This document shows, piece after piece, positions 1,042-62,494 of a stretch of DNA of 64,000 nt (the stretch's first letter is position 1; the number at the start of each line of letters is the position of its first letter). Both the position numbers and the translations under genes were made by a program. The notes below the pieces were generated by a model. It saw nothing but the letters and a program-made list of their open reading frames with translations, did no database searches and was not told where the DNA came from. Source of the stretch: an uncultured Ectothiorhodospiraceae bacterium (GTDB lineage Bacteria; Pseudomonadota; Gammaproteobacteria; JAABTG01); the NCBI GenBank assembly GCA_937867305.1, contig CALMKJ010000156.1:12011-76010 (forward strand). Reading direction: 5' to 3'.

Positions 1042-1316
1042 AACGGGGTTTCCGGTCAGGTGGAGGATGGGCTTGTTTCCTTCCACCATGCGCAAAGAAG
1101 GGCCGGTTCAGGCTCCCCTCAGCCTGCTAGACCGGTTCGTCACGCCTGCGAGAAGGTCTGGGCGGACCGGTCGACCGGTGGCATGATCGTCGGCACCATG
1201 CCTGCCGCGAACCCGATTCCGAAGCCGGTGACCATCCTGGACGTGCGTTCAATCCCGGTGGACACACCGGACGAGGACGAACCGGAGGTCCCGTTGCGTC
1301 GGGCGGCGTAACGCCC

Positions 1317-1562
1317 TCAGTACGGCAGGTCGAGACCGGCGACCCACAGCACCATCAAGGTGACGAACGCGGTCGCCCCGACACCGACCAAGGCCCACCC
1401 GATGATGCGTTGACGGGCCGGGAAGTCGGTCAACGGCTCACCGGTCACCGAATGGGTTCGGCCGGCACGCACCGCCATGCCGCGGCGGGTGTTTGCACCC
1501 AGCATCGCGTTGCCCCAGGCGAGCACGAAGATGGAGCCCGCGAACGACCAGAGCCAGTTCAT
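1317..1562 (-). CDS. small membrane protein (81 aa, two predicted TM helices)
   Basis: Internal Met (MNWLWSFAGSIFVLAWGNAML...) of track ORF 1317..1829; the upstream part of that ORF is Arg-rich junk. Confidence 0.35.
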   Translation of the reverse strand: MNWLWSFAGSIFVLAWGNAMLGANTRRGMAVRAGRTHSVTGEPLTDFPARQRIIGWALVGVGATAFVTLMVLWVAGLDLPY

Positions 1563-1683
1563 GCAGCGGCCCCCGTCCAGGTGAGGCTGGTGTGGTCGGT
1601 GTGAGTCATGGTTGGTTCCCTGCGGTCGTGGATGTGCGGACGCTTCTCCTGTGCCACCACGCCGGCGCCGAGGATCCCCGGCT

Positions 1684-2157
1684 TCACGACCAGTGCTCCG
1701 GCACCGTGTCCGGCACCCGCGGCGGGACGTGACCGACCAAGGCGGCGCGCAGCTCGTCGCCGACCATCTCGGCGGCCGCGACATACAGGTCGTCGTGCCG
1801 TTCCAGGTCCGGGTCGTCGACCAGGGCACGGCACTCGGTAACCGTCAACCGCATCAGGTTCTCGACACCCTGGACGCGCGGGAACCCGAGCGCTTCCAGC
1901 CGCCGGCAACGCCACGACCAGTCGGTCGAGGCGTCCATGACAGCCAGCACCCGGTTCAGGTCCACGCCTTCGGCCCGCAGCTCGAGGACCGCGCCACGCA
2001 CCGTCATTGACGCGACAAGGTCGGCAAGGTCGTCCAACGGGGCACCGATCGTCGCAGCCACATCAGGGTCCTGGGCAGCGTCGACGGCGTGGACCGCGCG
2101 TGTCATCAACGCGACGTGCTCCGCCGTCCTGTCCAACCATGCCGGGTCGGTGCTCAC
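1684..2157 (-). CDS. hypothetical protein (157 aa), GTG start
   Basis: Track ORF with normal composition; its start is a GTGA overlap with the stop of the 2154..2297 ORF. Confidence 0.45.
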   Translation of the reverse strand: MSTDPAWLDRTAEHVALMTRAVHAVDAAQDPDVAATIGAPLDDLADLVASMTVRGAVLELRAEGVDLNRVLAVMDASTDWSWRCRRLEALGFPRVQGVENLMRLTVTECRALVDDPDLERHDDLYVAAAEMVGDELRAALVGHVPPRVPDTVPEHWS

Positions 2158-2297
2158 GACGCCCGCCTTCGGAGGGCCCGGCGCACACGCAGGTCGTACG
2201 CGTACGAGGTGGCCGCACCGAGTGCGACCCCGGTCGCGAACGTGACGAACGCGGACCCCACCGACCAGACCAGGTAGCCGAACAGGTCGTGGCTCAC
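2154..2297 (-). CDS. small hydrophobic protein (47 aa)
   Basis: GTG start overlaps the stop of 2294..4711 (GTGA), and its own stop overlaps the GTG of 1684..2157; single TM helix VSHDLFGYLVWSVGSAFVTFATGVALGAA. Confidence 0.3.
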   Translation of the reverse strand: MSHDLFGYLVWSVGSAFVTFATGVALGAATSYAYDLRVRRALRRRAS

Positions 2298-4711
2298 CGG
2301 AACGTCACCACCCTGGACTCGGCTTCCACCATGTGCCGCATCGACACCCAGCCGACGAACTTGCCCACCTTCGGCAGATGCGAAGTCCGGAACGTGGAGC
2401 CACCCGGAAGAGGCAGGTCGACCTGTTGACGGTTCGCCGACCACGGGGTCAGCACCTGTTCCAACGGCGACCAGTGCACCGGGTCACCTGACGCGAGCCG
2501 GTCCGGGGCCAACCGGTCGAACAACGCCAGATCCGCTTCCAGGTCCCGTACGCCCGCCTGGGTCAGGTACGACGTGCGAGCCACCCGGGCCGCGGAGACC
2601 CGCGACAGGACCGTCTCGACATCCTCACCGACCCGGTCAGCAACCCCGACGGCCAGTTCACGGTCACGGTCCCCGATGTACGGCAGATGCCATCCACCCA
2701 CCCCGACCAGGGTCGGGGTGGACGCCTCGTACGCGTCCCGCATCCGTTCCGCGACCATCCGGATCTCCGGTTGTGCGTCAGGGTGGCACCGTTGCGCGAA
2801 GTAGTTCTCCACCGGCCCGGTCCACACCGAGACGTGCATCATGTGCGGTTCCAGCAGCCGGTTCGTGATCGACTTGTGCACGCCCAGCTCCCGCAGCTCC
2901 GACCCGAGCTGGATCGTTGCCTCCCGGTGCAGGTCCCACTTGCGGCGAGCTACCGCTTCGGCTTCCGCGGCAACCGGGTCACCACCCTGCATGCCGGAAC
3001 GTTCACTGGCCCACACGACCGGGACAGCCGGGTGCGCACGAACATCGTCGATGACCTTCACGACAGGTCGGGCACGACTCGACGCCGAGTTCTTGGAGTT
3101 GTGCACGACGATGCCGTCGGCCACGAAGTTGTGCCACGGACCTTCTACTTCGATGTCGTAGGTCATCTGCACTCCCGCGTAACGAATCGCCTTGATCGCT
3201 ACCCACTTCCGGGCGATTCGCCGTGACCTGGCCTTCGGCTTCCAGTCAGGGTGTGGTTCCTTGTCCGCCGACGAGAAGACCGAAAGGTCGTCTCCGTTGT
3301 GCAGGGCGTCGGCGAAGCGGTCTTCGAGGTTGTTCGCATGAAGGTATCGGTGATGTGTGGCGCAGAGCGTGATGAGGTTGTCGAAGTTCTTGGCGAGACC
3401 GACGTCTTTCACCACCGGGACGATGTGATGGGCCACGAGGTCGCTGCCGCACCCTCCGATCTGGCACTTGAATCCGAACTTCTGATGTACGCGGTACGCC
3501 TCGTTCTGTGTCCAGCGTCCGATGTCGGCTCGTTCACTGGTGATGCCACCCTTCCACCAGTGGTGCTCAGCCCCACGCGCATGGCGTTGGTTTGTGCGCC
3601 GACCACGCGTCTTGGGGTTCTGGTAACGCAGACCCGTGTTCCACGGCTTGCGTCCTTTCAGGATCAGCGAGATGTCGTAGGGGATCTTGTGTCGCTGGAA
3701 CGACCGCTTGACCTGGTTGACGGTTACCCCAAGATCAGCAGCGATGGACGTCGCAGACGATCCCTCTTGCCGGCGGGCGAGTAGCCATGCCGGGTCGTCG
3801 AGGCAGGCGGGCTTCTCCGGGGCAACGCGCTTCCAGCCAAACTCGGCGTACGCGCGCTCTACGCGGTGGCGGGGGACGTCGAGACGGTCGGCGATCTGAC
3901 GGATCGTCATGCCTTCCGCCCTCAATGAGCCCACGGTCTCGCGATCAAGGAGCACCTGCCCGTTCGCTGCGAACATCGGGGAGTCTCCTTGGTAGAAGAC
4001 GAGGTCCTCACTGTTGCGGCGGAGGCCGGTGGCCTCTTCCAGCGTGAGCCAGCCCCGGTCTGTGAAGAAGAGGTGGGCCTTCGATGTTGTGATGACGTAC
4101 CCGTCGTCGAACTCAACCGTGTAGGTCTCTTTCTCACCAGACTCCCACACGTCTTTGACGTGTGTGTGGACGATCTCTCCGGTTTCCTCGTTGAGACACC
4201 TGAGCCACATCCTCGAGAGGTTGGTCCGAGTGTTGTATTCGACTTCGGGAGGGTTGGAGTACCAGCGCTTGAAGTCCGCGCCATTGATGACACGGCGGCC
4301 GTTCTCGTTGGACCGAGCAGGCAGGCCGTAGAGGCGAACGGCCTTATCGAAGCCGGTGTAGTGGGCACCGAGAAGCTTAGCCAACTCCGCGGGCCGGTAG
4401 TCGCGATCGTCGACCAGCAAGGATGTGTCGAACTTCCCGCGCTTCCGACGAGAGTGGCGTGTGCCTGAATGCCACTTCCGGAAGAGCTCGTCGATCCGCA
4501 TCTTTCCGCCGGCCGCACGACCGGCCTCAACCCCGTTAGGCCGGTCGAACCACAGCTCGACATCTCCAGCGAGGCACATGACAGCATGCGTGTTCTCCTC
4601 GGCGAGCACCCAACGGTGGTGGCGCTTCTCGAACGTGGTGATCCTGTCGCCGTCGGGACTGATCGAGTCGGCGATCACCTTCGCGTACACGAAGTCGTCT
4701 GACCTGTTCAT
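2294..4711 (-). CDS. thyX: FAD-dependent thymidylate synthase (ThyX)-like protein interrupted by an intein with an HNH homing-endonuclease domain
   Basis: Short N-extein ending ...KRHHRWVLAEENTHAVM, then an intein starting CLAGDVELWF and ending ...VVHN, with Ser at +1. The intein contains an HNH block (HHIVPV...CATHHRYLH). The C-extein has ThyX-like C-terminal blocks (HVSVWTGPVENYFAQRCHPDAQPEIRMVAERM, compared with ThyX ...VVTGNYRAWRHFIAMR...EIRRLA). Start placed at ATG of MNRSDDF, with an AGGAGG RBS and an ATGA overlap with the upstream stop. Confidence 0.55.
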   Translation of the reverse strand: MNRSDDFVYAKVIADSISPDGDRITTFEKRHHRWVLAEENTHAVMCLAGDVELWFDRPNGVEAGRAAGGKMRIDELFRKWHSGTRHSRRKRGKFDTSLLVDDRDYRPAELAKLLGAHYTGFDKAVRLYGLPARSNENGRRVINGADFKRWYSNPPEVEYNTRTNLSRMWLRCLNEETGEIVHTHVKDVWESGEKETYTVEFDDGYVITTSKAHLFFTDRGWLTLEEATGLRRNSEDLVFYQGDSPMFAANGQVLLDRETVGSLRAEGMTIRQIADRLDVPRHRVERAYAEFGWKRVAPEKPACLDDPAWLLARRQEGSSATSIAADLGVTVNQVKRSFQRHKIPYDISLILKGRKPWNTGLRYQNPKTRGRRTNQRHARGAEHHWWKGGITSERADIGRWTQNEAYRVHQKFGFKCQIGGCGSDLVAHHIVPVVKDVGLAKNFDNLITLCATHHRYLHANNLEDRFADALHNGDDLSVFSSADKEPHPDWKPKARSRRIARKWVAIKAIRYAGVQMTYDIEVEGPWHNFVADGIVVHNSKNSASSRARPVVKVIDDVRAHPAVPVVWASERSGMQGGDPVAAEAEAVARRKWDLHREATIQLGSELRELGVHKSITNRLLEPHMMHVSVWTGPVENYFAQRCHPDAQPEIRMVAERMRDAYEASTPTLVGVGGWHLPYIGDRDRELAVGVADRVGEDVETVLSRVSAARVARTSYLTQAGVRDLEADLALFDRLAPDRLASGDPVHWSPLEQVLTPWSANRQQVDLPLPGGSTFRTSHLPKVGKFVGWVSMRHMVEAESRVVTFR

Positions 4712-5154
4712 TCGGTCACCTCCTGCTGGTCGGGGCACACCCGGGCCACAGCCGGCAGGTCGCCGGTCAACACGTGACCGAACACGTCGCGGGCGTACCC
4801 GTGGGGTCGGTCGGTGAAGTGGAGCCGGTTCGGCGCCTCACCGTCACGCACGTACGAAGCCGGGTCGCCGAACTCCACGCCGGGCCGGTGGTGGTACACG
4901 CGGCGTTGCGCGTCAACGAACAGGTAGGTCTCCACCCGGTCGGTGCCGTTGTTGTACACGCGGGTCTCGTCGGTGGAGAACAGCCGCTTCACTTCGTACA
5001 GGCCCACCAGGACCGGTTCACCGGACTTGTCGAACTCGTAGCGCGACGACACGAGACGGAACGCCCACACGATCACCGGGTCTTCCGACCTGGTCAGCCG
5101 CAGCCCCACCGGGACCGGGGGTACCGGTACGTCGGCGGCGTGCTTGCCGGTCAC
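4708..5154 (-). CDS. hypothetical protein (about 148 aa)
   Basis: Track ORF 4708..5196; start moved to the internal GTG that forms a GTGA overlap with the stop of 5151..5390. Confidence 0.45.
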   Translation of the reverse strand: MTGKHAADVPVPPVPVGLRLTRSEDPVIVWAFRLVSSRYEFDKSGEPVLVGLYEVKRLFSTDETRVYNNGTDRVETYLFVDAQRRVYHHRPGVEFGDPASYVRDGEAPNRLHFTDRPHGYARDVFGHVLTGDLPAVARVCPDQQEVTE

Positions 5155-5390
5155 GAGTCCGACTCCGACGAACCGGCCGCGAACTGACGTGACCAAGCCT
5201 GGAACTCGGTGTACGTGCCGAACGGCCCGAACCTCTCCGGGTTCTCGACCCGGCCGCAGTCGACGTACTTGCCGCCCGGGAACCGCACCTGCATGCGGGG
5301 AGGCGTGTCACCGGGCACCGCCCTGAACAGCGTCACGACCGTGCCGCTCGGTAGAGAGTGGGAAGACGACCACACGTTAGGGGAGCTCAT
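5151..5390 (-). CDS. hypothetical protein (79 aa) sharing a C-terminal PERFGPFGTYTEFQAWSRQFAAG motif with the downstream dNTP hydrolase-like protein
   Basis: Internal ATG of track ORF 5151..5426. The motif is paralogous to PERYGPVGRTSAEFKAWGRRFSAG at the C-terminus of 5377..6216. Confidence 0.4.
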   Translation of the reverse strand: MSSPNVWSSSHSLPSGTVVTLFRAVPGDTPPRMQVRFPGGKYVDCGRVENPERFGPFGTYTEFQAWSRQFAAGSSESDS

Positions 5391-6216
5391 AGTCGTCCTG
5401 TGTGCGGGAAACGTCGTCGGATGCACCCGGCGCGTTCTCCGGCGTGACCGCCTCCGGCCAACCTGCGGAGAACCGTCGGCCCCAAGCCTTGAACTCGGCG
5501 GACGTGCGGCCGACAGGACCGTACCGCTCCGGTCCTTTGCCGGGCCGGTCGTCGAACTCGGGCCGGTTCTCCACGAACCAAGCCAGGTTGAGTGCGTGCC
5601 AGGCGACCGCGATCATGTGCTTGACCGCCATCTCAGGGTCGTAGTCCTCCCCCATCCAGAACAAGCTCCCGTGCCGCAGCATCGCCGAGTACGAGCTAGA
5701 CCACGGGTACCCGCGCTTCCAGTTGGGTGCGCCCGCCACATCGTCCGGGTACTTCATCTGGCCCCGTCCGTACAGGACGGCCAACTCCCACAACGGGCCC
5801 GCCGGGATCAGGTCGATCCGTGCCTCCTTCATCGACTTCGACCCACCCGAAGCGCTCGTGACCAGGCGTTCGCCGCGCTCCCGAGGAGTCGCCGGTGCAG
5901 GTGCCGGTGCGACCGGGGCGGGAACCGGGCGCAGGTCGGTGCGGTCAGTCGGTGCCGGGGTCGAAGTGACGAACACGTCCACGTCGAGCAGTTCACCGGT
6001 GAGAGCGTCCAGGACCGGAAGCCCGATACCCAACGCCAACACGACCTCGCCGCGGGCGCCACGGGAGTCCTCCCAACGAGGCAGGACCGCGACCGCGTCC
6101 GCATCCGTCGTGATGTGTGCGGCGTACCGGGAAAACTCGCCCCGTAGGTCGAACCCGATGGTGTCCGGGTGCTCCTTGCCGGTGCAGCCGGCACGGGAGA
6201 TCTGGCGCCCCGTCAC
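5377..6216 (-). CDS. dATP/dGTP diphosphohydrolase-domain (MazG-like nucleotide pyrophosphohydrolase) protein; start uncertain (alternative ATG at 5832 gives a 152-aa domain-only protein)
   Basis: Block KEARIDLIPAGPLWELAVLYGRGQMKYPDDVAGAPNWKRGYPWSSSYSAMLRHGSLFWMGEDYDPEMAVKHMIAVAWHALNLAWF matches the phage/plasmid dATP/dGTP diphosphohydrolase N-domain pattern. A long GTG start gives a GTGA overlap; the alternative ATG has a GGTGGG RBS. Confidence 0.5.
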   Translation of the reverse strand: MTGRQISRAGCTGKEHPDTIGFDLRGEFSRYAAHITTDADAVAVLPRWEDSRGARGEVVLALGIGLPVLDALTGELLDVDVFVTSTPAPTDRTDLRPVPAPVAPAPAPATPRERGERLVTSASGGSKSMKEARIDLIPAGPLWELAVLYGRGQMKYPDDVAGAPNWKRGYPWSSSYSAMLRHGSLFWMGEDYDPEMAVKHMIAVAWHALNLAWFVENRPEFDDRPGKGPERYGPVGRTSAEFKAWGRRFSAGWPEAVTPENAPGASDDVSRTQDDYELP

Positions 6217-6295
6217 CCGGTCATCGGACCCGACAGGTACACCGTGTCGATGCCGTGGTGCCGGGCCGGAAGCGGAGCGGCGGCGGGATTCGTCG

Positions 6296-6658
6296 TCATG
6301 CTGTTCCTGTGCCAGAAGCACCCAGCCAGCCGGCCAACCGGTTGTCCGGATGGTCGGCGAACTCGTTCAGGTACACGGTGTGCAGCAGCCACCCGATCGC
6401 GACCGTCGAGGCGAGCACCGTGAACGGGTACGCGGTCTGTGTCGCCACGAACAGCACCGCGAGCCACCGCCACCACCGGTAGGTGCGTGCAGGTGGCACC
6501 AGGAACCACGTCACGACGGCCGGGAGCAGGAACACGGCCAGCATGAGCGCCAACCCGCCTTGCATCAGCGCGAACGTCATGGCCCACGTGACCAACCCAC
6601 CGACGCCAACGCACGCGGCCCAGCCGGCGAGCACCGCGAACGGGTTGCGGGTCGTCAT
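6296..6658 (-). CDS. integral membrane protein (120 aa, 3-4 TM)
   Basis: Track ORF; hydrophobic throughout; ATGA overlap with upstream 6655..6852. Confidence 0.5.
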   Translation of the reverse strand: MTTRNPFAVLAGWAACVGVGGLVTWAMTFALMQGGLALMLAVFLLPAVVTWFLVPPARTYRWWRWLAVLFVATQTAYPFTVLASTVAIGWLLHTVYLNEFADHPDNRLAGWLGASGTGTA

Positions 6659-6941: not shown

Positions 6942-8225
6942 TCAGGCCGTCTCGACCAGCTCCGGTGCAGACGCGTCACGCATCCGGTTGAAGTCACCCG
7001 AAACCAGGTGCTCCACGGCCAGCTCCATCAGCCGTTCCTGCACCTGCTCGGTCGTCGAACCGAGAGGGGCTCCCGGGTACGCGGCAGCCTGGTTCAAGTA
7101 GGTGTGCCACCGTGACCGGGACACGACGTGGCCGCGGCGGGCCGCGGCCTGCTCTGCCTCGGAGGCGACCGTGAAGTCGCTCACCGGCTCGCATTCGGTC
7201 GCCACCCACGACTCGACGAGGACGGCAGCCAGGTTCCGCCACCGCAAGTCCAGGCGACGTTGCCCGCGCGCGTCGGTGACCTTCGACGACGCGCCGGCCG
7301 CAGCGGTCCGCATCCGTTGGATCGACTTCTTCGAGGGCCGGTCGAACGGGGCAACCGCGAACTCGGCGAGCGCCGCAGCGAACCTCGGGTCGGCGTCCAG
7401 GAGCCGTTCCACCTGGTCGGCGTCGTAGGAGTCCCACAAGGCCAGCACCCGCTCGTCGACATCCCGGGTCAGTGCGTCAGGGTGTTCGCTGTACCCGAGC
7501 ACAACGGCTGCGAACGTCTCCAGCGACCGGTACGCCAACCACGGGTCGGCCTTCAACAGCTTCAGCACCTCGGCCCGGTCCCGGTAGTCCTCTGGTCGGA
7601 CCGCGGCGGGGACACCGAGGATCTCCGCCGCCTTCTCCATGCCGAGCCGCATCCGGGGCCGGCCGCGCAGACCGTGGCATTGGGCCTCGAACTCGTCGAC
7701 CTTGTCGGCGTACTCGTGTCGTGCCGCCGTGTCGTCTCCGGGCTCCGGGTCGTAGGTGACTGTGTCGAGGACGAACCCGGACGGGTCGGTCGCGGTCCCG
7801 GTGCGGCGTTCGGCGCGGCGGACGTCGCGGATGCCTTGGACGATGTGGTTGGGGACGTGCTTGCGCAGCCACCCGCACGCTGAGGAGGTTCGGGCGATGG
7901 CGAAGTCGAAGTCGCGGCTGCCGGGGGTGAGGAGCTTGGCGGCGATCTTGGCGCGGACGTGGTCGGCGACCTCGTCGAGGATTCGGTACTCGACCTGGCT
8001 TCGGCCCAGGCTCGTGCCGATCACGTTGGTCGTCATCAAGGCGGTGGCGATGATGCTGCGTGCCGTCTGCTCGTCGAAGACGCCTTCGTCGTACGCGGCG
8101 ATGACTTCTTTCACCGCTCGGTCGATGGTGTCGGTGTCATCGAACTGGGACAGTTCGGCGGCGATGACGGCCGGGTCGCGGGTCGGGTTGAAGCAGGCGA
8201 AATGGGTCGCGGCAGGTGGGGTCAC
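6942..8225 (-). CDS. hypothetical protein (427 aa)
   Basis: Long ORF without Arg bias; GTG start lies 9 nt downstream of class-1 motif CCCCGCACACC. Confidence 0.55.
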   Translation of the reverse strand: MTPPAATHFACFNPTRDPAVIAAELSQFDDTDTIDRAVKEVIAAYDEGVFDEQTARSIIATALMTTNVIGTSLGRSQVEYRILDEVADHVRAKIAAKLLTPGSRDFDFAIARTSSACGWLRKHVPNHIVQGIRDVRRAERRTGTATDPSGFVLDTVTYDPEPGDDTAARHEYADKVDEFEAQCHGLRGRPRMRLGMEKAAEILGVPAAVRPEDYRDRAEVLKLLKADPWLAYRSLETFAAVVLGYSEHPDALTRDVDERVLALWDSYDADQVERLLDADPRFAAALAEFAVAPFDRPSKKSIQRMRTAAAGASSKVTDARGQRRLDLRWRNLAAVLVESWVATECEPVSDFTVASEAEQAAARRGHVVSRSRWHTYLNQAAAYPGAPLGSTTEQVQERLMELAVEHLVSGDFNRMRDASAPELVETA

Positions 8226-8312: not shown

Positions 8313-10832
8313 TCAGAACACCCGGTCGAGCACCTGCGCGTCCTCGTTCACCTGGCCGGCAGCAGCCAACGCCGCCGCCGCGGCCTCACGCCTCTTGATG
8401 TCCTCGGGGTTCGTCGACGACATCGCCAAGAACTCAGGCGACAAGTCAACCCGGACCGGAACAGCACGACCCGACAAGTCGACGTAGATGCACACCGACC
8501 CTCGCAACACCTCGCCGGTCACCGGGTCACGCAACGCCTTCATCGACATCGGGTTCGGCGAGACCGCCTGAGCCGAGTTACCGCCGATCGTGGCCTTCGC
8601 CATGATCCGCTGCAAACGGGCCGGTGTCGGATCCAACTTCCACAACTCGCACGCCGCCCGCGCCTCCTTCTCGTCCTCGATCGACAAGACCAGACCACGG
8701 GAGATGTACCCGGCCAACCCGGCACTCACCGCGTCGGAGACCCGCTGAGTGAACAGCATCGGGAGCACACCCTGGCTCCGGGCCAGACGCCCCAGCCGCT
8801 CCACCTCGGCACGACCAGCCCCCAAGAACACCCACGCCTCGTCGAGCATGACCACGCCCTGACGGCCGGTCAACGCCATCGCAGACCCGAACACCATCAT
8901 CCGGACCACCGCCAACGCGACCCGTTGCGGCAACGTCTGGTTCAGCGCACCCGGCTCCGGCAGATCCAGGTAGGCGTCCCCCACCTTGATCAGGGTGATC
9001 CCGCTCGACGTACGCAGACCCTCCGTGCTCGGGTTCACCCCGACGATCGCCCGGAACATCGGCGACGACGACGCCAACGCCTCCACCCGCGACACCATCT
9101 CCGGCGGCATCGGGATCTGGTCCCGCACCGCGATCGCCAACGCCTGACCGATACACGTCGCGCCCTTGTCGACCCCGTAGGACAGGGCGTGCGTCAACGG
9201 CACCTCCATGTCGGCGACCGCGGTACCCCACGGGTTGATCGCCATGAGCATCGACGCGGCCAGCTCGGCGCCCACCTCCTTCTTCGCAGAGAACCGGATC
9301 GGGTCGAAGATGCCGTCCGCGGTCACCAGCGTGTCCAACGACGCGACCTGGCCACCGGCCGCCAACACCACAGAGGAATGGTCGGAACCCATCTTCGGGT
9401 CCACGATCACGACAGGGCGACCCATCCGGGCGTACTGGTCGGCCAACGACAACAGCACCTGGGTCTTGCCGGACCCGGTCGCACCCGCACACAACGCGAT
9501 CGGCAGCCCGTCGCTCGTCGACGCGGCCGTCGGGGACAGGTACGCCGGCTGCCGGTCCCGTTCAGTGAACCCGAGCAACGCACCGTCCGGGTCGCCCACG
9601 AACGACAACGACGGGATACCCGAACACGCGACCGTCTGAGCCGGCAGGTCATGCAGATGCGGGTTCGCGCGCAGGTGACTGCACAACCACGTCTCCGCCA
9701 TCGCACCGTGCTGCCGGAAGTCCATCATCGCCAACCGGGCCGGTGCGTCCGCGGACAACACCTGGTGCACGTCACGGAACTGACCGTCGAACCCGGCCAC
9801 GATCGACGCCGACGCCAACGTCGGAGGAGGGTTCCCGCCGGTGGCGTACAACCCTTCGACGCCTTCAAGAAGCGCCATCATCTCGACCTGCTCCGCGCGC
9901 TCCATCTTGCCCTGCTTGGTGCGCTCGTTGATGTCGTCGATGAACCGCTTCCGCTGCCGGCGCAGCTCCTCACGGGTGATCGCACCCGGTTCGATGACAC
10001 CGCGGATCGACACGGCCAACGCCCCCGCACCGACCAGGTCGGCCACCCAATGCGACGTCGGGTCGGTCGCCTTCACGAAGGACAGGTCCAGGTCCTGGAC
10101 GGACGCGAACGTGACCGCGTGCGTGCCCGGGACGGTCGTGTGCGTCCACGACGCACACTGGTCCACCCCCGCCTCGTCGGCCATCCGCACCGACTCGACC
10201 GACTCGAACACGTGCACGTGGTCCGGGTGGACCAGCATCGGGGTGTCGGCGTAGTACCCGTGGTTCCACCACGCGTTCGCCAACCGGACGTCGTCAGCGG
10301 ACACCTTCACCAGACCAGACCGGTCCATCGCGGCGTTCATCCGCTCCGTGTCCTCGTCGAAGTCCGACAACGGCACGTTCCCAGCCACCACCGTCTCCAC
10401 GACCGAGTTGACCGCGTCCAAGAGACCACCACCGCCGAGCTTGTCGCGCAACCGCACCCCGACGAGCAGCAGCCGGCGGTCGATCGCGGTGTTCGGGTAC
10501 CGCTGCCGCAGCACCTCGGACAAGGCGTGGCCACGTCCCGGCGCGAACCGCTGAGGCACGTTCACCAGCAACACATGCACCTCGCGGTACGAACCACGAG
10601 ACGTCGCCCGACGCCGCATCCCGACGTTCACCTGGCCGGCCAGCTCCTCGAAGAACGACAGCAGCGGCTCAGCCGCCGTCAACGACTCGGCCGGGTTGCG
10701 GGCATCGACGACTGGGCCCAACGGCACCGCCCGGTACATCCACAACGCCCCGTTGACGCCTTGGAGTCGCCCGTCGGCGAGCCGGGACCGCAACGTCGTC
10801 GGCCAGGCCGGCTGCTCGGAAACCTCGATCAC
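8313..10832 (-). CDS. VirB4/TrbE/CagE-like conjugative ATPase (839 aa)
   Basis: Walker A CAGATGSGKTQ followed by VVIVDPKMG; Walker B VVMLDEAWVFLG (the DEAW hallmark of VirB4-type ATPases); size and domain order fit the family. Confidence 0.6.
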   Translation of the reverse strand: MIEVSEQPAWPTTLRSRLADGRLQGVNGALWMYRAVPLGPVVDARNPAESLTAAEPLLSFFEELAGQVNVGMRRRATSRGSYREVHVLLVNVPQRFAPGRGHALSEVLRQRYPNTAIDRRLLLVGVRLRDKLGGGGLLDAVNSVVETVVAGNVPLSDFDEDTERMNAAMDRSGLVKVSADDVRLANAWWNHGYYADTPMLVHPDHVHVFESVESVRMADEAGVDQCASWTHTTVPGTHAVTFASVQDLDLSFVKATDPTSHWVADLVGAGALAVSIRGVIEPGAITREELRRQRKRFIDDINERTKQGKMERAEQVEMMALLEGVEGLYATGGNPPPTLASASIVAGFDGQFRDVHQVLSADAPARLAMMDFRQHGAMAETWLCSHLRANPHLHDLPAQTVACSGIPSLSFVGDPDGALLGFTERDRQPAYLSPTAASTSDGLPIALCAGATGSGKTQVLLSLADQYARMGRPVVIVDPKMGSDHSSVVLAAGGQVASLDTLVTADGIFDPIRFSAKKEVGAELAASMLMAINPWGTAVADMEVPLTHALSYGVDKGATCIGQALAIAVRDQIPMPPEMVSRVEALASSSPMFRAIVGVNPSTEGLRTSSGITLIKVGDAYLDLPEPGALNQTLPQRVALAVVRMMVFGSAMALTGRQGVVMLDEAWVFLGAGRAEVERLGRLARSQGVLPMLFTQRVSDAVSAGLAGYISRGLVLSIEDEKEARAACELWKLDPTPARLQRIMAKATIGGNSAQAVSPNPMSMKALRDPVTGEVLRGSVCIYVDLSGRAVPVRVDLSPEFLAMSSTNPEDIKRREAAAAALAAAGQVNEDAQVLDRVF

Positions 10833-12870: not shown

Positions 12871-12925
12871 TGCCACCAGCCAGCACGCGGGCCTTCAACG
12901 CGCCGCCGAGAACCGGCGCGAAGCC

Positions 12926-47902: not shown

Positions 47903-47935
47903 GCGTCACCCGCCTTCCCCGCACACCTCGGGGGC

Positions 47936-50334: not shown

Positions 50335-50369
50335 CCCGGTGTTCCCGGTGTGGTGGCACAGGAACAGAC

Positions 50370-51293: not shown

Positions 51294-51332
51294 CCCGGAG
51301 CGGGCGGCGCATCTCCCGCACACCGCACCGGC

Positions 51333-53229: not shown

Positions 53230-53273
53230 CCGGCCGGGAGCATCAACGGCCCTGACCCGCACACCAGGATGGT

Positions 53274-53654: not shown

Positions 53655-53681
53655 CGCTCCGGCGTTGGCGCATGGTGTCGG

Positions 53682-55581: not shown

Positions 55582-56589
55582 GTGCCTTTGCGCATGGTGT
55601 GGGGCGTCCCCCCTGAACTGCGTGAAAGGCGCCTGTCTGCGATGGCTGTCCACCTGCACGACACCGGTTCGCTGGTGCCTGCGGTCGTCCGTGCGCTTGC
55701 CGGCGTCGGGGTGGGCCATGGTCCGTTGCACGCGGTCACCATCCCGCCGTCGTGCAACACGTTCATCACCGACGGTGAGGCCGTGTTCGTGAAGGTGACG
55801 ACCGGTCCGACCGACCACGAGTACCTGGTGGCCAAGCACCTGGTCTCCGACCGGTTCCCGACACCGGAGCCGTTGACTCCTCCGACGACCGTGTCGCTCG
55901 GCCCGGGCCGGGAGGTGTGCCTGCTGCCGTACCGCTTCCACCGTGCTCACGCGACCGCGGTGTCGGCAGCAGAGACCGGTCACCTGGCTGGTCTGTTGTG
56001 GGGCGCCCGGCCACCGGTGTCTGCCCGCGGCACCCACTGGCATGCGTTGTTGTCCGCCTCGACGCGCAACGTCGACGGGGTCACGTGTGAGGAAACGGCT
56101 GGGCTGCTGCGGGGTCTGTTGGCTTCGACGGCGGACGCGTTGACCGAGTACACCCGGGTCCGGACCCCCAAGTCGGTGTTCGCTCACGGCGACTTGCACC
56201 GCCGGAACACGATGCGTGCCGAGTCGGGCGGTGCGATGCTGCTCGACTGGGAACGGGCCGGGGTGTGGTGGCCGGAGATGGAATGTGCCAAGTTCGTGCA
56301 GACATCTCTCACTGAACGGGAACATGCCGCACCGGACGGGTCGGTGTTCACTGAGAGGTCCAGTGACGTCGAGGCGTTCCTGGTGGCTTCCGAGGAGGCG
56401 TTGGGCCGGCCGTTGGACCTGGACCTCTTGGACTTGTGTGTGCGGTTCCGGGCCGCGGGTGCTGCCGCGTACCAGGCCCGGTGGGGCGTTCGGGAGGACA
56501 GACCAGACTGGTTCGACGCGGGTGTCGCGTTGGCTCGTGACGGCGTGGCCGCTGCCGGCTCGGAGCCCGGGCAGCAGGTGCTCGCATGA
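55582..56589 (+). CDS. APH/choline-kinase-family phosphotransferase
   Basis: Catalytic loop VFAHGDLHRRN and MLLDWERAG (the HGDLHxxN ... DWE signature); start inside class-3 motif. Confidence 0.5.
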   Translation: MPLRMVWGVPPELRERRLSAMAVHLHDTGSLVPAVVRALAGVGVGHGPLHAVTIPPSCNTFITDGEAVFVKVTTGPTDHEYLVAKHLVSDRFPTPEPLTPPTTVSLGPGREVCLLPYRFHRAHATAVSAAETGHLAGLLWGARPPVSARGTHWHALLSASTRNVDGVTCEETAGLLRGLLASTADALTEYTRVRTPKSVFAHGDLHRRNTMRAESGGAMLLDWERAGVWWPEMECAKFVQTSLTEREHAAPDGSVFTERSSDVEAFLVASEEALGRPLDLDLLDLCVRFRAAGAAAYQARWGVREDRPDWFDAGVALARDGVAAAGSEPGQQVLA

Positions 56590-57059
56590 GGACCGCGCCC
56601 GCCGTTGCCGTGCACCCGACCCAGCAGTTCCCGGTTCGCGCGTTGCATGTCTTGGCTCTCGACGTGATCGTGGACCAGCCCGCGTACGCTCCCGCAGTCG
56701 TCGACGGCACCCAGACGGTCCAGCAGTGGTTGTGGACTCGGATCGCGTCGTGGCACCGGGCGCTGATGGTCTCCGAGGAGGACATGGCCGGTTACATCGG
56801 GGTGCGCACCGACGCCCCGGACGGACCGGAGTTGTCCCGTCTCCTGGTCCACCCGTCCCACCGTGACGACGGGACGGCACGGGTCCTCGTCGACTCGTCC
56901 ATCGACCGGTTCGGCCCGGACCTGCGCGCCGTGGTGGTGCCGGGGTACCCCAGCCACACGTTGCTACACTCGCTCGGCTGGGTGGAGACAGGCCCGGTGT
57001 CCGCCACGCCCGCAGTCGAGCCGATCGTGCTCGTGCACCCGTCTGCGGTGAACCACTGA
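56586..57059 (+). CDS. GNAT-family acetyltransferase (probable)
   Basis: LLVHPSHRDDGTARVLVD resembles GNAT motif A; ATGA coupling to the kinase gene. Confidence 0.4.
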   Translation: MRTAPAVAVHPTQQFPVRALHVLALDVIVDQPAYAPAVVDGTQTVQQWLWTRIASWHRALMVSEEDMAGYIGVRTDAPDGPELSRLLVHPSHRDDGTARVLVDSSIDRFGPDLRAVVVPGYPSHTLLHSLGWVETGPVSATPAVEPIVLVHPSAVNH

Positions 57060-57352
57060 TGGACGCTGTCGCAGTCCTCGGCGTCGTCGCCACGCTTGGC
57101 GGCGTCCTGCTGGGCTTGTCCCCTGTGATGCAGATGCGCGTGGTCGTGGCCCGCCGCTCGGCCGAAGGCGTGTCTTTGGGGTACTGGCTGGTCCTGGTCG
57201 TGGCGATGGGCTTGTGGTTGGCGTACGGCCTGGTTTCCCGCAACGCCGCCATCATCGTTGCGAACACCGTGTCCTGCACCGTCGGGGCGGCGATGATCGT
57301 CGTCCTCCTCCGGTACCGGAACGGTGTTTTCGAGCCGGAGGAACCGTCGTGA
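57059..57352 (+). CDS. small 3-TM membrane protein (97 aa)
   Basis: Track ORF; hydrophobic; TGATG coupling. Confidence 0.4.
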   Translation: MDAVAVLGVVATLGGVLLGLSPVMQMRVVVARRSAEGVSLGYWLVLVVAMGLWLAYGLVSRNAAIIVANTVSCTVGAAMIVVLLRYRNGVFEPEEPS

Positions 57353-58199: not shown

Positions 58200-58760
58200 A
58201 TGATCGACCAGAGCCACATGCTTCCCGAAGATGTGCGTGAACGTGTCCGCCGTGAGGTGACCGGCCAGATCGGCGCGGAGAACCACCGCCTCATCCGGGC
58301 GGTGGCGGTCCGGGTCCTCCTCACGTTGGCGTTGGTCAGCTACGTCCTGATCACGTTGGACACGGTGGAGGATGAGCCTGAGTTCTTCGCGCTCATGTTC
58401 GCGTCCGTGACCGCGTTGGCGGGCCTGGTCGCGGCTGATGCGTCGTTGCGGATCCCGCAACTGTTCGCCGGCGCGGTGGCGAGGCGTCAGCCGTTCGCGA
58501 TCCCGGCGGACCCGAGCCGTTGGTTGAAGTGGGCGACTGTCGGTGCGTCCGCGACGTTGTGGGTGCTGCCGTTGAGCGCGGGCACGGGGACTTTCCTTTC
58601 CGGTGTTGCGTTGGCGGTTGCGTTGCTGCCTGTCTTGTTCTTCGTTTCCAACGTGGTGTTGCGTGCGTCGTTGGCTCAGTGGGTCGGGTTGCCGGCCCGG
58701 GTCACGATGGACCTCGTGTCGGGTCGAGACGGCGACGCTGATCCGCGCACTGGTGCATGA
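58200..58760 (+). CDS. integral membrane protein (186 aa)
   Basis: Track ORF; GGAACAAGGAG RBS; 4-5 predicted TM helices. Confidence 0.45.
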   Translation: MIDQSHMLPEDVRERVRREVTGQIGAENHRLIRAVAVRVLLTLALVSYVLITLDTVEDEPEFFALMFASVTALAGLVAADASLRIPQLFAGAVARRQPFAIPADPSRWLKWATVGASATLWVLPLSAGTGTFLSGVALAVALLPVLFFVSNVVLRASLAQWVGLPARVTMDLVSGRDGDADPRTGA

Positions 58761-58788
58761 GGCGGGTCTTCCCGCACACAACCCAGCC

Positions 58789-61764
58789 ATGAATGACGGC
58801 ACCCCTGGCGACCGGATCGCCGCGCTGCGCGCCGAGATCGAACATGTCCAACGCGACGTCGCCGACCTGACCGGGCCGGACGCGGCGTCCAAGGAGGTTG
58901 TCTCGCTCGGTTCCGGTGGTGTCCCGGCGGAGGTGACGCGCGCCCAGTTGGCGCAGGTCCGGGGACGAGCGTTGAAGCAGGCTCAGCGTCTGGAGTCGTT
59001 GCGCAAGCAGCTTGTCGCCGAGTACGAGGCGCAGGCGCGCGCCGTGAGGAAAGAGCTGGACGCCCTGATCGTCCCGTTGCGTGAGCAGATGGCCCGCATG
59101 GAGGAGGGCCTGTGGACGGTGAACCTGTACCTGGGCCGCGACGAGGAGATCGTGCAGCTTCTCGACGGGGAGCCGGCACCGGTCGAATCCCCGATCTCGT
59201 TGCGCCAGCAGGTGCTGTCCATGGACGAGGAGACGGCCGCGTTCGCGGAGACCGGCGGCATCGACGCCCGCAACATCGACGTGTTCGACGAATGGGTGAA
59301 GAACCCGGCGCATCTGGCGCAGGTGTTCCCTGAGCCGAAAGGTGTCGTCGTGCTGGTGCCGCGACACCGGGGCCGCGACTATGAGGACCCGTGGGTCAAC
59401 CGGGCGATGCGGGAAGAGAACGCCTGGTCGTACTTCCTCATCCGCAACGGTGAACGGTTGTACCGGATGCGCACCGACTTCGTGGTCGGGAAGCACCTGA
59501 TTCCGACGACGACCGAGTTCACTGGCCTGTTCTCGGGGCGCCGTTTCAACCCGGAGACCCGGACCGATGAGGTGTACGAACTGACCCCGGGCACTCGGGA
59601 ATGGGACGCCGCCGCGAAGTCCCAGGACGCCCGGCAACGGCACTTCATGCGGATGGCGTTGGTCCTGCAAGGTCTGGTCGACCGGACGACCGTGTGGCAC
59701 CCGCTCCCGCCCCACGGAGTGAACCTGTTGAGCAACGACACGTACGCGCACGGCACCGCGGTCCTGGTACGGGACGCCGAACACGTGTTGACGGACGGAC
59801 GGGACGACTTCTTCACGTGGCTCTCGAAGCTGACCGACCAGATGCGCCCCGGCATGAGAATCCTCGGTGCGTTCAACACCGACGAGTTCCGTCATGCCGG
59901 CGGCTGGCGCGCCCCGTCCAGCGACGACGGGTGGCGTGGGCGTACGAGCGACCGGGTCAGCCCGAACGGGTCCGAGTTCCCCGCCACTGGTGTGATTCAC
60001 CGGTTGGAGGGCCGCAAGACGCTGCACGACGTGCAGGGGTTCACGTTCAAGTTCGAGCGGGTGCGGAAGTCGTACATCGACGACGAGTACCGGGCCCCGA
60101 AGACCCGTGGGACGTGCACGGTCCTGCCCGGCGACAAGTTCGTGTTGCCGTACGACCTGGTCACCGTCGAAGAGATGCGGTACTACCTCGGTTCGCGGCG
60201 GCAGCGAGGCGCCTACGAGTACATGTTCCCGCTCCTGCACGCCGCTATCGCAGCCAAGGAGGCGGAAGCGGCCGAGGAGGCGCCGTTCCGGGGGCTGCTG
60301 GCCGGTGAACTGGCGAAGACGGACCCGTCGTTGACGTTCGACGAGGCGACTGTCGTGGCCGACGAACTGGTGCACTGGTGGAAGTTCACGAACCGGTACC
60401 ACCGTGCCCTGAACGGCGACCCGACCCATGAGGCGCAGGCGGTTCGCGACATCGTGGCTGAGCACCGGGCTCGCAGGTCGGCGGCGTCGGTCCAGTCTGG
60501 TGATGAGCCCGCGGAGCAGGCGATGGTGGAGCGGCTGCTTGCCGAAGACCCGTCGATCATGGTGGTGGCCCGTAAGCGTGACGGCCGGTACTTGGCGTTC
60601 GCCCCGCAACCCCGGGTCTACCCGGCCGGGAAGGTGGGGCACCCGGCCACGAACGTGGCGCAGCCGCGTCCGTTGACGCCGCAGGAGGTCGAAGCGTTCA
60701 AGGCGAAGCAGCATTGGATGTTCCGTGACCGTGACCCGGAGGCGGGCCGGCTGGTGTTCGCGGCGGTCGCCGACAACGTGTGGGCCGTCGAGTACGTCGT
60801 GTCGAAGACGGGTCGTTCGACGAAGCGCCGCGAATGGGTGCAGCCCGGCAACAGGTTGGATCGGACCCGCGTCCTGTACTCCTCGCAGATGTGGGACGAG
60901 TTCGACATGCACGCCAGCGCGAACGCCCACCTGACCGACGTCGAGATCGACGACGTGATCAGCCAGGTCGTGCCCGAAGTGGAGGCGTACGCGATGGCAG
61001 GGTGGCCCACGTGGCGCAGTCGAGCCGAACCGGTTGTCCCGCTGATCCTCGGGGTGTGCCTGCGTGTCGACGGCGACACTCCCCGGTTCGAGGTTCACCT
61101 GATCTCGGACGAACTGCCTGGTCCGGTGACGGCGGAGCTCTCACCCGAGCCGTGGCGCGCAGAGATGACCGCCGGGGTGGTCATGGTCCCGTTCACGAAG
61201 ACCGTCCGCACCGGGGTCGTGCTGCACCGCGACGACGGTGACGGTGCGGCACCGTGGGGTTTGCGGTTCCGTAAGCCGAGGTACTCGACGGCGACGTTGG
61301 ACCGGCCGTGGCACTACTACTGGGACGGCCGGGCACAGGACGCGATCGCGTTGGTCACGTTCCCCGGCAACCAGGCTGTCGCCGTCGCACAGGCCGAGGC
61401 GATCAAAGCACACAACGCACGGGTCGACGACCTGTATGAGCGGGCCCGCCGACCGGTCGCCGTGGTCAAGAAGGCGTGGGAGGCCCGGGCCGAGAAGGAG
61501 GCGTATGTGCGGTTCCTCGAGGAGTACGCGGACCCCGAGCTGTGGGAGTCGCACAAGGAGACGTTGCGCGGTCTGGAAGCGAACATCCACCCGGCAGGCC
61601 GGGGCATCCCGAAGGTGCTCGACGAGGCGTTGCGCCGGTTCGTTCTCGACGGCCGGTCGTTCGAGGGGCACACGGTCCGGTCGGTGGTCGAGTCGTGCGG
61701 CCTGTTCGTGGACGGTGTCGCCGAAGACCTGCTGGACCTGCCTGTGTGGGAGGCGGGCGAATGA
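58789..61764 (+). CDS. large hypothetical protein (about 991 aa), no P-loop detected
   Basis: Internal ATG (MNDGTPGDR...) of track ORF 58603..61764, 8 nt after a class-1 motif (GGTGCATG-N12-CCCGCACAC); coiled-coil-like N-terminus. Confidence 0.5.
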   Translation: MNDGTPGDRIAALRAEIEHVQRDVADLTGPDAASKEVVSLGSGGVPAEVTRAQLAQVRGRALKQAQRLESLRKQLVAEYEAQARAVRKELDALIVPLREQMARMEEGLWTVNLYLGRDEEIVQLLDGEPAPVESPISLRQQVLSMDEETAAFAETGGIDARNIDVFDEWVKNPAHLAQVFPEPKGVVVLVPRHRGRDYEDPWVNRAMREENAWSYFLIRNGERLYRMRTDFVVGKHLIPTTTEFTGLFSGRRFNPETRTDEVYELTPGTREWDAAAKSQDARQRHFMRMALVLQGLVDRTTVWHPLPPHGVNLLSNDTYAHGTAVLVRDAEHVLTDGRDDFFTWLSKLTDQMRPGMRILGAFNTDEFRHAGGWRAPSSDDGWRGRTSDRVSPNGSEFPATGVIHRLEGRKTLHDVQGFTFKFERVRKSYIDDEYRAPKTRGTCTVLPGDKFVLPYDLVTVEEMRYYLGSRRQRGAYEYMFPLLHAAIAAKEAEAAEEAPFRGLLAGELAKTDPSLTFDEATVVADELVHWWKFTNRYHRALNGDPTHEAQAVRDIVAEHRARRSAASVQSGDEPAEQAMVERLLAEDPSIMVVARKRDGRYLAFAPQPRVYPAGKVGHPATNVAQPRPLTPQEVEAFKAKQHWMFRDRDPEAGRLVFAAVADNVWAVEYVVSKTGRSTKRREWVQPGNRLDRTRVLYSSQMWDEFDMHASANAHLTDVEIDDVISQVVPEVEAYAMAGWPTWRSRAEPVVPLILGVCLRVDGDTPRFEVHLISDELPGPVTAELSPEPWRAEMTAGVVMVPFTKTVRTGVVLHRDDGDGAAPWGLRFRKPRYSTATLDRPWHYYWDGRAQDAIALVTFPGNQAVAVAQAEAIKAHNARVDDLYERARRPVAVVKKAWEARAEKEAYVRFLEEYADPELWESHKETLRGLEANIHPAGRGIPKVLDEALRRFVLDGRSFEGHTVRSVVESCGLFVDGVAEDLLDLPVWEAGE

Positions 61765-62174
61765 CGCACGAGGCCGAGGTGCACGCCACCGGTCTCTCCG
61801 CACACAACCCGGACGTGACCAGCTTCCAGGTGTTCCGCCGCGTCGGAACCAAGAACGAGACCTGCCTGTACGGCGGCCGGCACACGGTCGTGTACGTCGA
61901 TTCGGTCTGGGTGACCCCGACGGGCGAGACCCGGCCTTACGACAACGGCTACGAGACGGGCGAGAACAAGCTGTTCGTCGACCAGGACGGCGAGGTGTAC
62001 GAGCGCGTCCAAGGCTTCGACTACTGCAGTGTCCCGCGGTGGGTCCGTGACAGCGACCGGAAGCGGTTCGAGCGCAGGTGGACCGACCCGGCCCGCGAAC
62101 TGACCGGCAACGGCTTGAACGGGTGCCCTTCCGGCGCCCCGTGGTGGGCTGTCGAAGACGAGCGCCGCCATTGA
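61761..62174 (+). CDS. hypothetical protein (137 aa)
   Basis: ATGA overlap with the upstream stop; tail of track ORF 61476..62174. Confidence 0.45.
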   Translation: MTHEAEVHATGLSAHNPDVTSFQVFRRVGTKNETCLYGGRHTVVYVDSVWVTPTGETRPYDNGYETGENKLFVDQDGEVYERVQGFDYCSVPRWVRDSDRKRFERRWTDPARELTGNGLNGCPSGAPWWAVEDERRH

Positions 62175-62416
62175 ACCGGGAGCCGAATCCGGCGGTCGGT
62201 CAGCGGTGGGTCCGCCGGGGCGACGGAACACTGTGGCGCGTCATTGGCCGGCGGCGCTCCGGATGGGTGCTGTCCAGTGGACCGGGACGTGTCCTGGTCG
62301 TCGGTCTGCACGAGTTGATCACCGACTTCGACCATGCGGGGTGCGACCACGACTACGCCTGCTGTTTCGAGCACGGGACGCACACGAACCCGCACCGAGG
62401 CTGCATGCTGCGCTGA
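62171..62416 (+). CDS. small Cys/His-rich protein (81 aa), TTG start
   Basis: Overlapping ATTGA junction; C-terminal CDHDYACCFEHGTHTNPHRGC cluster suggests metal binding. Confidence 0.3.
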   Translation: MNREPNPAVGQRWVRRGDGTLWRVIGRRRSGWVLSSGPGRVLVVGLHELITDFDHAGCDHDYACCFEHGTHTNPHRGCMLR

Positions 62417-62494
62417 GCGGTCGTCGGGGTGCGTGGAATGGCCCTCGTTTGCGCATGACCCTATGTAGAGGTTGTTGAAAGAAAAGGTCCCGTC

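Follow-up and report, generated by a model that had tools for sequence, protein, structure and literature searches.

Leaderless genes of Actinobacteria carry a -10 element of the form TANNNT about 6-8 nt upstream of an ATG or GTG that is both the transcription start and the start codon, as seen in the start-site maps of Mycobacterium and Streptomyces. Promoters of extracytoplasmic function (ECF) sigma factors are bipartite, with a GGAAC-type -35 element, a rigid spacer of 16-17 nt and a short CGT-type -10 element. Two further systems have short oriented sequences near genes: the operators and stoperators of mycobacteriophage L5 and Cluster A phages are asymmetric 13-mers whose orientation follows transcription and which lie in short intergenic gaps (PMC9283540, PMC6550527), and the start-associated sequences of Cluster K mycobacteriophages are 13 bp long, asymmetric, placed 3-7 bp from the start codon and built on an AGGAG Shine-Dalgarno core (PMC3203893). 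The present analysis concerns a short repeated sequence, motif A, in a stretch of 64,000 nucleotides (hereafter the window; contig CALMKJ010000156.1 of assembly GCA_937867305.1, positions 12,011 to 76,010), deposited as DNA of an uncultured Ectothiorhodospiraceae bacterium and encoding a type IV secretion system (T4SS), a TrwB/VirD4-like coupling protein, FtsK-like translocases and prepilin-like proteins.

Our results suggest that motif A is the -10-type core of a one-directional class of promoters for conjugative-transfer genes, shared by a family of actinobacterial megaplasmids and integrative and conjugative elements; we give this reading a probability of about 0.62. RNA polymerase would melt the DNA at CATGKT, the A and the final T of this hexamer being the two key -10 bases, and transcription would begin 8 nt past this T. 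The predicted start is the A of the ATG at two genes, those for the coupling protein and the small membrane protein, so that their mRNAs would be leaderless, and the remaining sites would have leaders of about 15-40 nt with Shine-Dalgarno sequences. Promoters of this class would switch on the T4SS operon with its VirB4-like gene, the coupling protein, the FtsK-like translocases, and the prepilin-like and mIHF-like genes. The enrichment, orientation and position of the motif, the conservation of its core and spacing, and the base signature at the predicted start are direct observations; we infer both the position of the transcription start and the identity of the holoenzyme from sequence.

In the window, motif A is a 13-mer, TTTGCGCATGGTG, with a 9-mer core, GCGCATGGT; the form shared within the lineage is TTKGCGCATGGTG, and the broadly conserved part is CGCATGKT. 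Allowing up to two mismatches, the 13-mer has 8 matches against 1.17 expected, with a maximum of 4 in 100 dinucleotide shuffles, and the 9-mer occurs exactly 8 times where 0.74 are expected. A weight-matrix scan scored eight sites at 18.9-26.8 bits, the site at 62447 at 15.6 bits and the next candidate at 12.6 bits. As the maxima in shuffled sequences reached 17.8 bits, the copy at 62448 (15.6 bits) is within the shuffled range; it is marginal on score and is retained mainly for its position and for the paralogy of its gene with that of copy 1. The nine copies are as follows.

Copy 1, 1084-1096, minus strand: TTTGCGCATGGTG, 42 nt 5' of ATG 1041 of a prepilin-like gene that leaves the window at its left end
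Copy 2, 12673-12685, minus strand: 44 nt 5' of GTG 12628 of the first T4SS operon gene, with an AGGAG Shine-Dalgarno sequence in the leader
Copy 3, 17954-17966, minus strand: 22 nt 5' of ATG 17931 of the mIHF-like gene 17425-17931
Copy 4, 27313-27325, plus strand: GCTGCGCATGGTG, 31 nt 5' of GTG 27357 of a 147-aa gene with a weak DUF2510-like match
Copy 5, 30538-30550, plus strand: GTTGCGCATGGTG, 6 nt 5' of ATG 30557 of the type IV coupling-protein gene 30557-33109, likely leaderless
Copy 6, 35201-35213, plus strand: 6 nt 5' of ATG 35220 of a gene for a 55-aa membrane protein, likely leaderless
Copy 7, 53665-53677, plus strand: TTGGCGCATGGTG, 11 nt past the stop codon of the upstream gene, with an FtsK-like gene downstream
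Copy 8, 55587-55599, plus strand: 16 nt past the stop codon of the FtsK-like gene, with an APH-like kinase gene downstream
Copy 9, 62448-62460, plus strand: partial, 34 nt 5' of ATG 62495 of the second prepilin-like gene 62495-63469

The exact 13-mer TTTGCGCATGGTG is present at five copies; the copy at 30538 begins GTTG and that at 53665 begins TTGG, and copy 9 (TTTGCGCATGacc) agrees only over its first 10 bases, the matching part being given as TTTGCGCATG. A preliminary description of the window had listed eight copies of a near-palindrome. All eight exist, within about 10 nt of the positions given there (12665 for 12673; 30530 for 30538), but the list missed the copy at 27313-27325 and counted in full the partial one at 62448, and although the 6-bp core TGCGCA is palindromic, the 13-mer is not. 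In the window, all nine copies lie upstream of the next gene and in its orientation, and no copy falls within any gene body.

The window has 68% G+C. Gene orientation changes at about 23.4 kb, from leftward in the left arm to rightward in the right arm, and the GC skew changes with it. Copies of motif A are on the minus strand in the left arm and on the plus strand in the right arm. As the orientation of the motif switches between the arms together with gene orientation and GC skew, and three FtsK-like proteins are encoded, the copies might be polar guides for these translocases, similar to FtsK orienting polar sequences (KOPS) or TraB repeats and pointing outward from an origin of replication or transfer near 24-30 kb. 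Guides of this kind, however, mostly occur in gene bodies, where motif A is absent; all of its copies stand at promoter positions with fixed start-codon spacing, and in the related plasmid pACHL01 of Pseudarthrobacter chlorophenolicus A6, a culturable strain, two copies placed back to back between the divergent GspE and pilM genes follow gene direction and not replicon polarity. A guide function is therefore extremely unlikely.

Copies 1, 2, 5 and 9 lie in long intergenic regions, and copies 6, 7 and 8 lie 11-24 nt past a co-directional stop codon. The likely start codon follows the motif after 6 nt at 30557 and 35220, after 22 nt at the mIHF-like gene and after 31-44 nt elsewhere. The longer leaders contain AGGAG, GAGGAGG, GGAAGG, GAAAGG or GAGAGG a few bases 5' of the start codon. 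For the FtsK-like gene after copy 7, TTG 53715, with its GAGAGG Shine-Dalgarno sequence, is a more likely start than GTG 53682; the APH-like kinase likely starts at ATG 55642, preceded by GAAAGG. These distances bear on whether the motif could act on the mRNA as a translation-initiation signal, in the manner of the Cluster K start-associated sequences. Like those, motif A is an asymmetric 13-bp repeat that stands 5' of the start codons of unrelated genes in one orientation and is conserved across related elements, and at some genes its distance to the ATG is fixed. In contrast to those sequences, it has no Shine-Dalgarno core, its distance to the start codon varies from 6 to about 47 nt, and the leader sites have a Shine-Dalgarno sequence of their own further downstream. 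Furthermore, no common RNA fold was found at the nine sites (z-scores of -2.0 to +0.9, with differing pairings), an Rfam search returned only a tRNA, and a sister motif, motif C, precedes tRNA genes. A role in translation is accordingly most improbable.

As related loci sit on actinobacterial megaplasmids, the window can be placed in a family of conjugative megaplasmids or integrated elements. The related loci (numbered L001 and onward here) belong to many Actinomycetota. Some are on megaplasmids of 375-608 kb from Arthrobacter, Pseudarthrobacter, Paenarthrobacter and Curtobacterium; more distant ones were found on Bifidobacterium megaplasmids. Coupling-protein genes were compared at 28 loci from many genera, and at 27 of them CGCAT (25 loci) or a near-variant, GGCAT or CCCAT (two loci), is followed after 9-11 nt, mostly 10, by an open start codon in frame with the gene. 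The consensus is CGCATGKT-nnnGGGY-ATG, with no space for a Shine-Dalgarno sequence. The same arrangement precedes the gene for a membrane protein of about 50 aa that heads the NERD/FtsK-like operon in L001, L004, L008, L010, L026, L037 and L076. The motif that heads the T4SS operon stands about 1.9-2.3 kb before VirB4; it is leaderless in L041, L042/46, L056 and L062/74 and is followed by a leader of about 40-50 nt in the window, L038, L040 and L043. The site corresponding to copy 2 is kept in L038, in L040 and at several metagenome loci. The site before the mIHF-like gene (copy 3) is kept in L039.

These alignments also bear on the start codons. To the preliminary description, the ATG inside the motif had appeared to be the start codon at copies 5, 6 and 8, which probably does not hold: at six coupling-protein loci the spacing is 11 nt, placing this ATG out of frame, and in L004 it is followed by an in-frame TGA, so that the downstream ATG is probably the true start. 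The deposited 888-aa coupling protein of the window is read from GTG 30443 and would be about 38 codons too long, ATG 30557 being the likely start. Most coupling proteins of the relatives have been called from the motif-internal ATG, which gives them a spurious MxxGM N-terminus beginning four codons early. The motif thus offers a correction for the start codons of coupling-protein genes.

Further upstream of the coupling-protein gene other repeated or conserved sequences were observed. The window has a direct repeat, GAACTGTCCGG-N5-GAACGTTCCGG, at 30490-30516 on the plus strand, and in the Arthrobacter group AAATCCGCCTAnCCGGGTC (about -41 to -59) always stands 25 nt upstream of CGCAT. Conserved elements upstream of this promoter were seen in L008, L019, L020, L027 and L037, and may be activator sites.

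The bases next to the conserved part differ by lineage. The window, L001/L038 and L076 have TTKGCGCATGGTG, the Arthrobacter group and L040 have CTACGCATGTT, and CTGCGCATGKT is found elsewhere; TGCGCA is replaced in other lineages by TACGCA, CCGCA or GGCGCA. As the flank differs in this way, TGCGCA is not a conserved palindrome. This finding speaks directly to the suggestion of the preliminary description that the motif is the operator of a dimeric helix-turn-helix repressor bound at TGCGCA. In the window form the six bases are indeed a perfect palindrome, and three copies in pACHL01 are enclosed by larger inverted repeats, whose arms measure 7-11 bp. In other lineages, however, the symmetry is lost (CTACGCAT, CCGCAT, GGCGCAT), and the conserved CGCATGKT is asymmetric. 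The motif has a single orientation relative to its gene, no dyad partner was seen at any window site, and the repeat arms in pACHL01 vary by site. Nor was a small helix-turn-helix repressor detected by Pfam, NCBIfam and PHROGs searches among the approximately 60 open reading frames of the window, many of which have no assigned family. A dimeric operator is highly unlikely on this evidence.

The inverted repeats in pACHL01 extend across the predicted start and are located at L078 4931-4965, L078 19580-19622 (minus strand) and L079 19398-19440; they are described as TCTAC-N12-GTAGA, an example being AGGTTCTCTAC-N12-GTAGAGAACCT. As their arms differ between sites, they are more suggestive of a structure than of a half-site held in common. 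The window has no counterpart of these repeats.

Where genes are leaderless, the conserved bases are at positions -15 to -8 counted from the ATG, which is where a -10 element must lie. In the window and the relatives alike, CATGGT or CATGTT stands 7 nt before the ATG of the genes for the coupling protein and the small membrane protein, and the hexamer has the A at position 2 and the T at position 6 that characterize a -10 element. The lineage variants CATATG, CATAAG and CATATC fit the A and T positions of such a hexamer, the A being retained in CATATG and CATAAG. The predicted start site was examined at 21 leader sites (7 from the window and 14 from relatives), not all of which are independent, although their flanks have diverged. 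The base 8 nt past the T of CATGKT is a purine at all 21 (binomial 5e-7), and a pyrimidine-purine step occurs there at 19 of the 21 (binomial 4e-10). This pattern is a signature of transcription start on sequence grounds, unexpected for a pure repressor site or a translation signal. The predicted start base at copy 1 is A, and at copy 3 the GAGGAGG Shine-Dalgarno sequence begins at the predicted 5' end of the transcript.

In common with the leaderless promoters of Actinobacteria, motif A has an A and a final T at the key positions, 7 nt to the ATG, no Shine-Dalgarno sequence, no obligatory -35 element and a pyrimidine-purine step at the start. In contrast to them, it has an invariant C as the first base of the hexamer, an invariant CG upstream and a conserved, lineage-specific flank of 3-4 nt; it is also limited to one functional regulon and moves with the element across host genera.

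This limitation to one regulon is also seen in pACHL01, of which 192 kb were read. ACGCATGTY occurs there 13 times against about 2 expected, and 12 of these occurrences have the form CTACGCATGTT and stand at promoter positions, all of them co-oriented with the gene. They precede GspE/PulE and pilM genes (a back-to-back divergent pair), a GspF-family gene, both annotated prepilin genes, a 578-aa FtsK/SpoIIIE gene, a second operon with a T4P/Tad-like ATPase, two small hypothetical genes, the coupling protein and the small-membrane/NERD/FtsK operon. The adjacent 50-kb array of small genes in pACHL01 has no motif A; another motif is present there in 32 copies. Co-regulation of the pilus-like and translocase genes, an idea of the preliminary description, survives this cross-genus comparison because the motif in pACHL01 precedes the same gene classes as in the window, and the same core is found before the same kinds of genes in relatives of other genera.

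Several observations weigh against the promoter reading. The first base of the hexamer is C at essentially every site and not the T of TANNNT, and a plain housekeeping -10 element explains neither this base nor the invariant CG before the hexamer. No conserved -35 element was found at a fixed distance from the nine copies or their orthologues, where GGTG- and GAAC-like words occur at variable distances. Three of the nine copies lie in very short co-directional gaps, a position that also fits an elongation-blocking site. Orthologous sites in related elements are non-independent observations, and the inverted repeats in pACHL01 hint at an extra layer of control, either by a regulator or by structure. 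A scan for TTGACA/TATAAT sigma-70 promoters and terminators found nothing at the motif regions, a result that is uninformative in DNA of 68% G+C.

The copies in short gaps lead to another possibility, namely that a monomeric repressor binds motif A asymmetrically, in the manner of the L5 operators and stoperators, that it blocks initiation or elongation, and that the promoter geometry results only from overlap of the site with promoters. The sites at 35201, 53665 and 55587, 11-24 nt past a co-directional stop codon, would suit such a repressor, as would an asymmetric 13-mer whose orientation follows transcription at every site. A lineage-specific flank would be expected if the site co-evolves with an element-encoded protein. 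In common with the stoperators of L5 and Cluster A, motif A is oriented with transcription, occupies promoter regions and short gaps and has a sequence specific to the mobile element. L5, in contrast, has more than 20 sites genome-wide, whereas there are 9 copies of motif A in 64 kb (9-12 per element), all at transfer genes and thus in one functional class. Moreover, the spacing to the leaderless starts is fixed across very distant relatives, the pyrimidine-purine signature is present at the predicted start even at leader sites, and Pfam and PHROGs searches of the window found no repressor-like protein. We consider a repressor site of this type unlikely, while noting that it does not conflict with the promoter reading, since the promoter core itself could be occupied by a repressor.

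A promoter could also be read specifically by the ECF sigma factor of the window (39986-40540), with positive autoregulation of the transfer regulon. No other protein of the window was clearly recognized as a sequence-specific transcription protein. Its gene belongs to the operon that begins at copy 6, as would befit autoregulation, and this synteny is kept in L001 and L076; in L076 an extra copy of the motif directly follows the sigma gene. Elements bearing the sigma gene keep the exact 13-mer TTTGCGCATGGTG even though the sigma protein has diverged to 48-74% identity, and the G+C-rich, non-TATAAT core resembles the -10 element of ECF promoters. Motif A, however, has no conserved -35 partner at rigid spacing, and the bipartite motif C is a better structural fit. 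In a search covering flanks of 10-20 kb at most loci and the 192 kb of pACHL01, where no sigma factor is annotated, homologues were found only in the window, L001, L026 and L076/77, whereas motif and regulon are present in pACHL01 and many other elements. As a universal reader the ECF sigma factor was therefore rejected, its gene being absent from most elements that carry the motif, and the case of pACHL01 indicates that it is not required for motif A. Specific reading of motif A by this factor is likewise an unlikely explanation; the protein is a candidate reader of one of the motif classes of the window.

Within the promoter reading, the most likely reader is an enzyme of the principal-sigma type, favoured because there is no -35 partner at fixed distance and because the pACHL01 regulon exists without an annotated sigma factor. 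An element-encoded factor that recognizes the invariant CG and the lineage-specific flank possibly helps or gates this enzyme. The large open reading frames were also considered as an element-encoded alternative RNA polymerase, and no convincing catalytic motif of the DxDGD type was found in them. The 1121-aa protein looks like a P-loop protein of the primase/helicase type.

Keyword and full-text searches of the literature, the coverage of which is incomplete, found no description of motif A or of transcription control in these elements, and a full-text search for the motif strings returned unrelated primers only. A regulon-specific promoter core is a known kind of object; the sequence, its restriction to pilus, T4SS and translocase genes and the way it is kept with the element in different host genera appear to be undescribed. 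A short conserved signal of this kind would define a transfer regulon (T4SS operon, coupling protein, FtsK-like and type IV pilus genes) from sequence alone and would tie the pilus genes functionally to conjugation. If the reading factor is encoded by the element, it would be a new regulator of conjugation in high-G+C Gram-positive bacteria.

Two other motifs precede start codons in the window. Motif C is bipartite, GGTGCA (-37 to -32)-N14-CCGCACAC (-17 to -10)-N9-ATG/GTG; 19 copies have this exact geometry, and CCGCACAC has 32 matches in all. Motif B has the form TGGCACAGG-N6-ATG, with 7-8 copies (TGGTGGCACAGG). Examples of motif C, the two tRNA genes that it precedes, and copies of motif B are as follows.

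29097-29146, plus strand: motif C
47919-47938, plus strand: motif C
51316-51335, plus strand: motif C
53257-53276, plus strand: motif C
58742-58791, plus strand: motif C
63507-63526, plus strand: motif C
41570-41619, minus strand: motif C
44570-44619, minus strand: motif C
46245-46294, minus strand: motif C
46943-47016, minus strand: tRNA-Lys(UUU) gene, preceded by motif C at 47034-47041
47457-47530, minus strand: tRNA-Leu(CAA) gene, preceded by motif C at 47590-47597
1648-1659, minus strand: motif B
12867-12878, minus strand: motif B
15833-15842, minus strand: motif B
44263-44274, minus strand: motif B
47071-47082, minus strand: motif B
23882-23893, plus strand: motif B
50351-50362, plus strand: motif B

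Since motif C precedes tRNA genes, it would act in transcription and not in translation, and as it combines a fixed ATG spacing with a -35-like element, the same can be argued for the start-proximal motifs of the element in general. Motif C is also present in L037, L075, L078 and L079, with a -35-like half that varies by lineage, and pACHL01 has it as GGKGA..-N12-CCGCACACAT-N7-ATG, at a density of about 30 copies per 50 kb. It looks like the main promoter of these elements. Motif B is in several cases found 6 nt before ATG or GTG, for instance at the genes for the PD-(D/E)XK nuclease, a 1070-aa primase/helicase-like protein and a lipoprotein. A B-like TGGCACAGG is located 26-33 nt upstream of the T4SS-operon motif A in the window and in L038.

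Compared with motifs B and C, motif A is a rare class tied to transfer genes. An SGCA core, 10-16 nt before the leaderless start, is common to the three, and none resembles a standard housekeeping promoter. Only tentatively can they be regarded as promoter classes that together form an autonomous transcription programme of actinobacterial conjugative megaplasmids and integrative elements, with a factor of the element, either a very divergent sigma-like protein or one that redirects the host enzyme, to read or gate them. Class A would then be the pilus/T4SS/translocase regulon, and class C would account for dozens of copies per element together with the tRNA genes, a division that is equally tentative. 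Such a programme would resemble the temporal promoter classes of phages.

Apart from the copies of motif A, the main transfer-related genes of the window and its sigma gene are as follows.

8313-10832, minus strand: VirB4-like ATPase gene
30443/30557-33109, plus strand: TrwB/VirD4-like coupling-protein gene
39986-40540, plus strand: ECF sigma factor gene, with Pfam regions r2 and r4_2 and TIGR02937

The T4SS operon under copy 2 comprises 12065-12628, 10829-12061, the VirB4-like gene and 6942-8225. The operon that starts at copy 6 contains the genes for the 55-aa membrane protein, a NERD-domain protein (35366-36019), an FtsK-like protein (36036-39989) and, as the last one recognizable as a transcription gene, the ECF sigma factor. 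Both pilin-like proteins, the product of the gene under copy 1 and its counterpart under copy 9, have prepilin-type N-termini (G/LALMDVLLGMAIFAL...), and the actino_IHF match of the mIHF-like gene is weak. The window further encodes ParA-like and ArdC-like proteins, a PD-(D/E)XK nuclease and a ThyX interrupted by an intein.

The coupling protein has only a small number of homologues, in Arthrobacter, Glutamicibacter, Nocardioides and metagenomes. For the VirB4-like protein, Nocardioides sp. Leaf285 and N. pakistanensis have counterparts with 69% identity. Metagenome loci were retrieved with a VirB4 alignment, a single VirB4 protein as query having given none. A megablast search with 20 kb of the window against plasmids and phages found no match, and an exact-sequence look-up of three window proteins found no record. 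One complete relative, NZ_CP189586.1, has 131 kb. Overall, these elements are plasmids of about 130-600 kb or integrated forms in soil Actinomycetota (Arthrobacter, Pseudarthrobacter, Nocardioides, Curtobacterium, Aeromicrobium), and nearly all of their genes lack annotation.

All 16 PLSDB plasmids with a coupling-protein homologue are typed by MOB-suite as non-mobilizable, despite having VirB4-, VirD4- and FtsK-like genes and type IV pilus genes; their transfer system is probably invisible to current typing schemes. L001 and L038 are parts of the same JGI contig, Ga0604662_0000020 (496 kb), in which the VirB4 operon lies at about 222-244 kb and the coupling-protein locus at about 420-443 kb, that is, about 200 kb apart compared with 20 kb in the window. 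The transfer genes are thus scattered over a very large element, yet the same motif is kept.

Some of the cargo of the window is odd for a plasmid:

2294-4738, minus strand: ThyX-like gene with an intein (HNH and HTH domains)
5377-6321, minus strand: PF18909 dATP/dGTP diphosphohydrolase-like gene
43598-44275, minus strand: RF-1-domain (ArfB-like) gene
57059-57352, plus strand: gene for a SWEET/MtN3-like small membrane protein

The relatives add NUDIX, NADAR, NT5C, DNA ligase and RNA ligase genes, a repertoire that is phage-like in appearance. Many coupling-protein and VirB4 homologues (P0018, P0020, P0037, P0038, P0052 and others) are 400-600 aa longer and contain LAGLIDADG or Hom_end domains, which points to repeated invasion of the transfer ATPases of this family by inteins.

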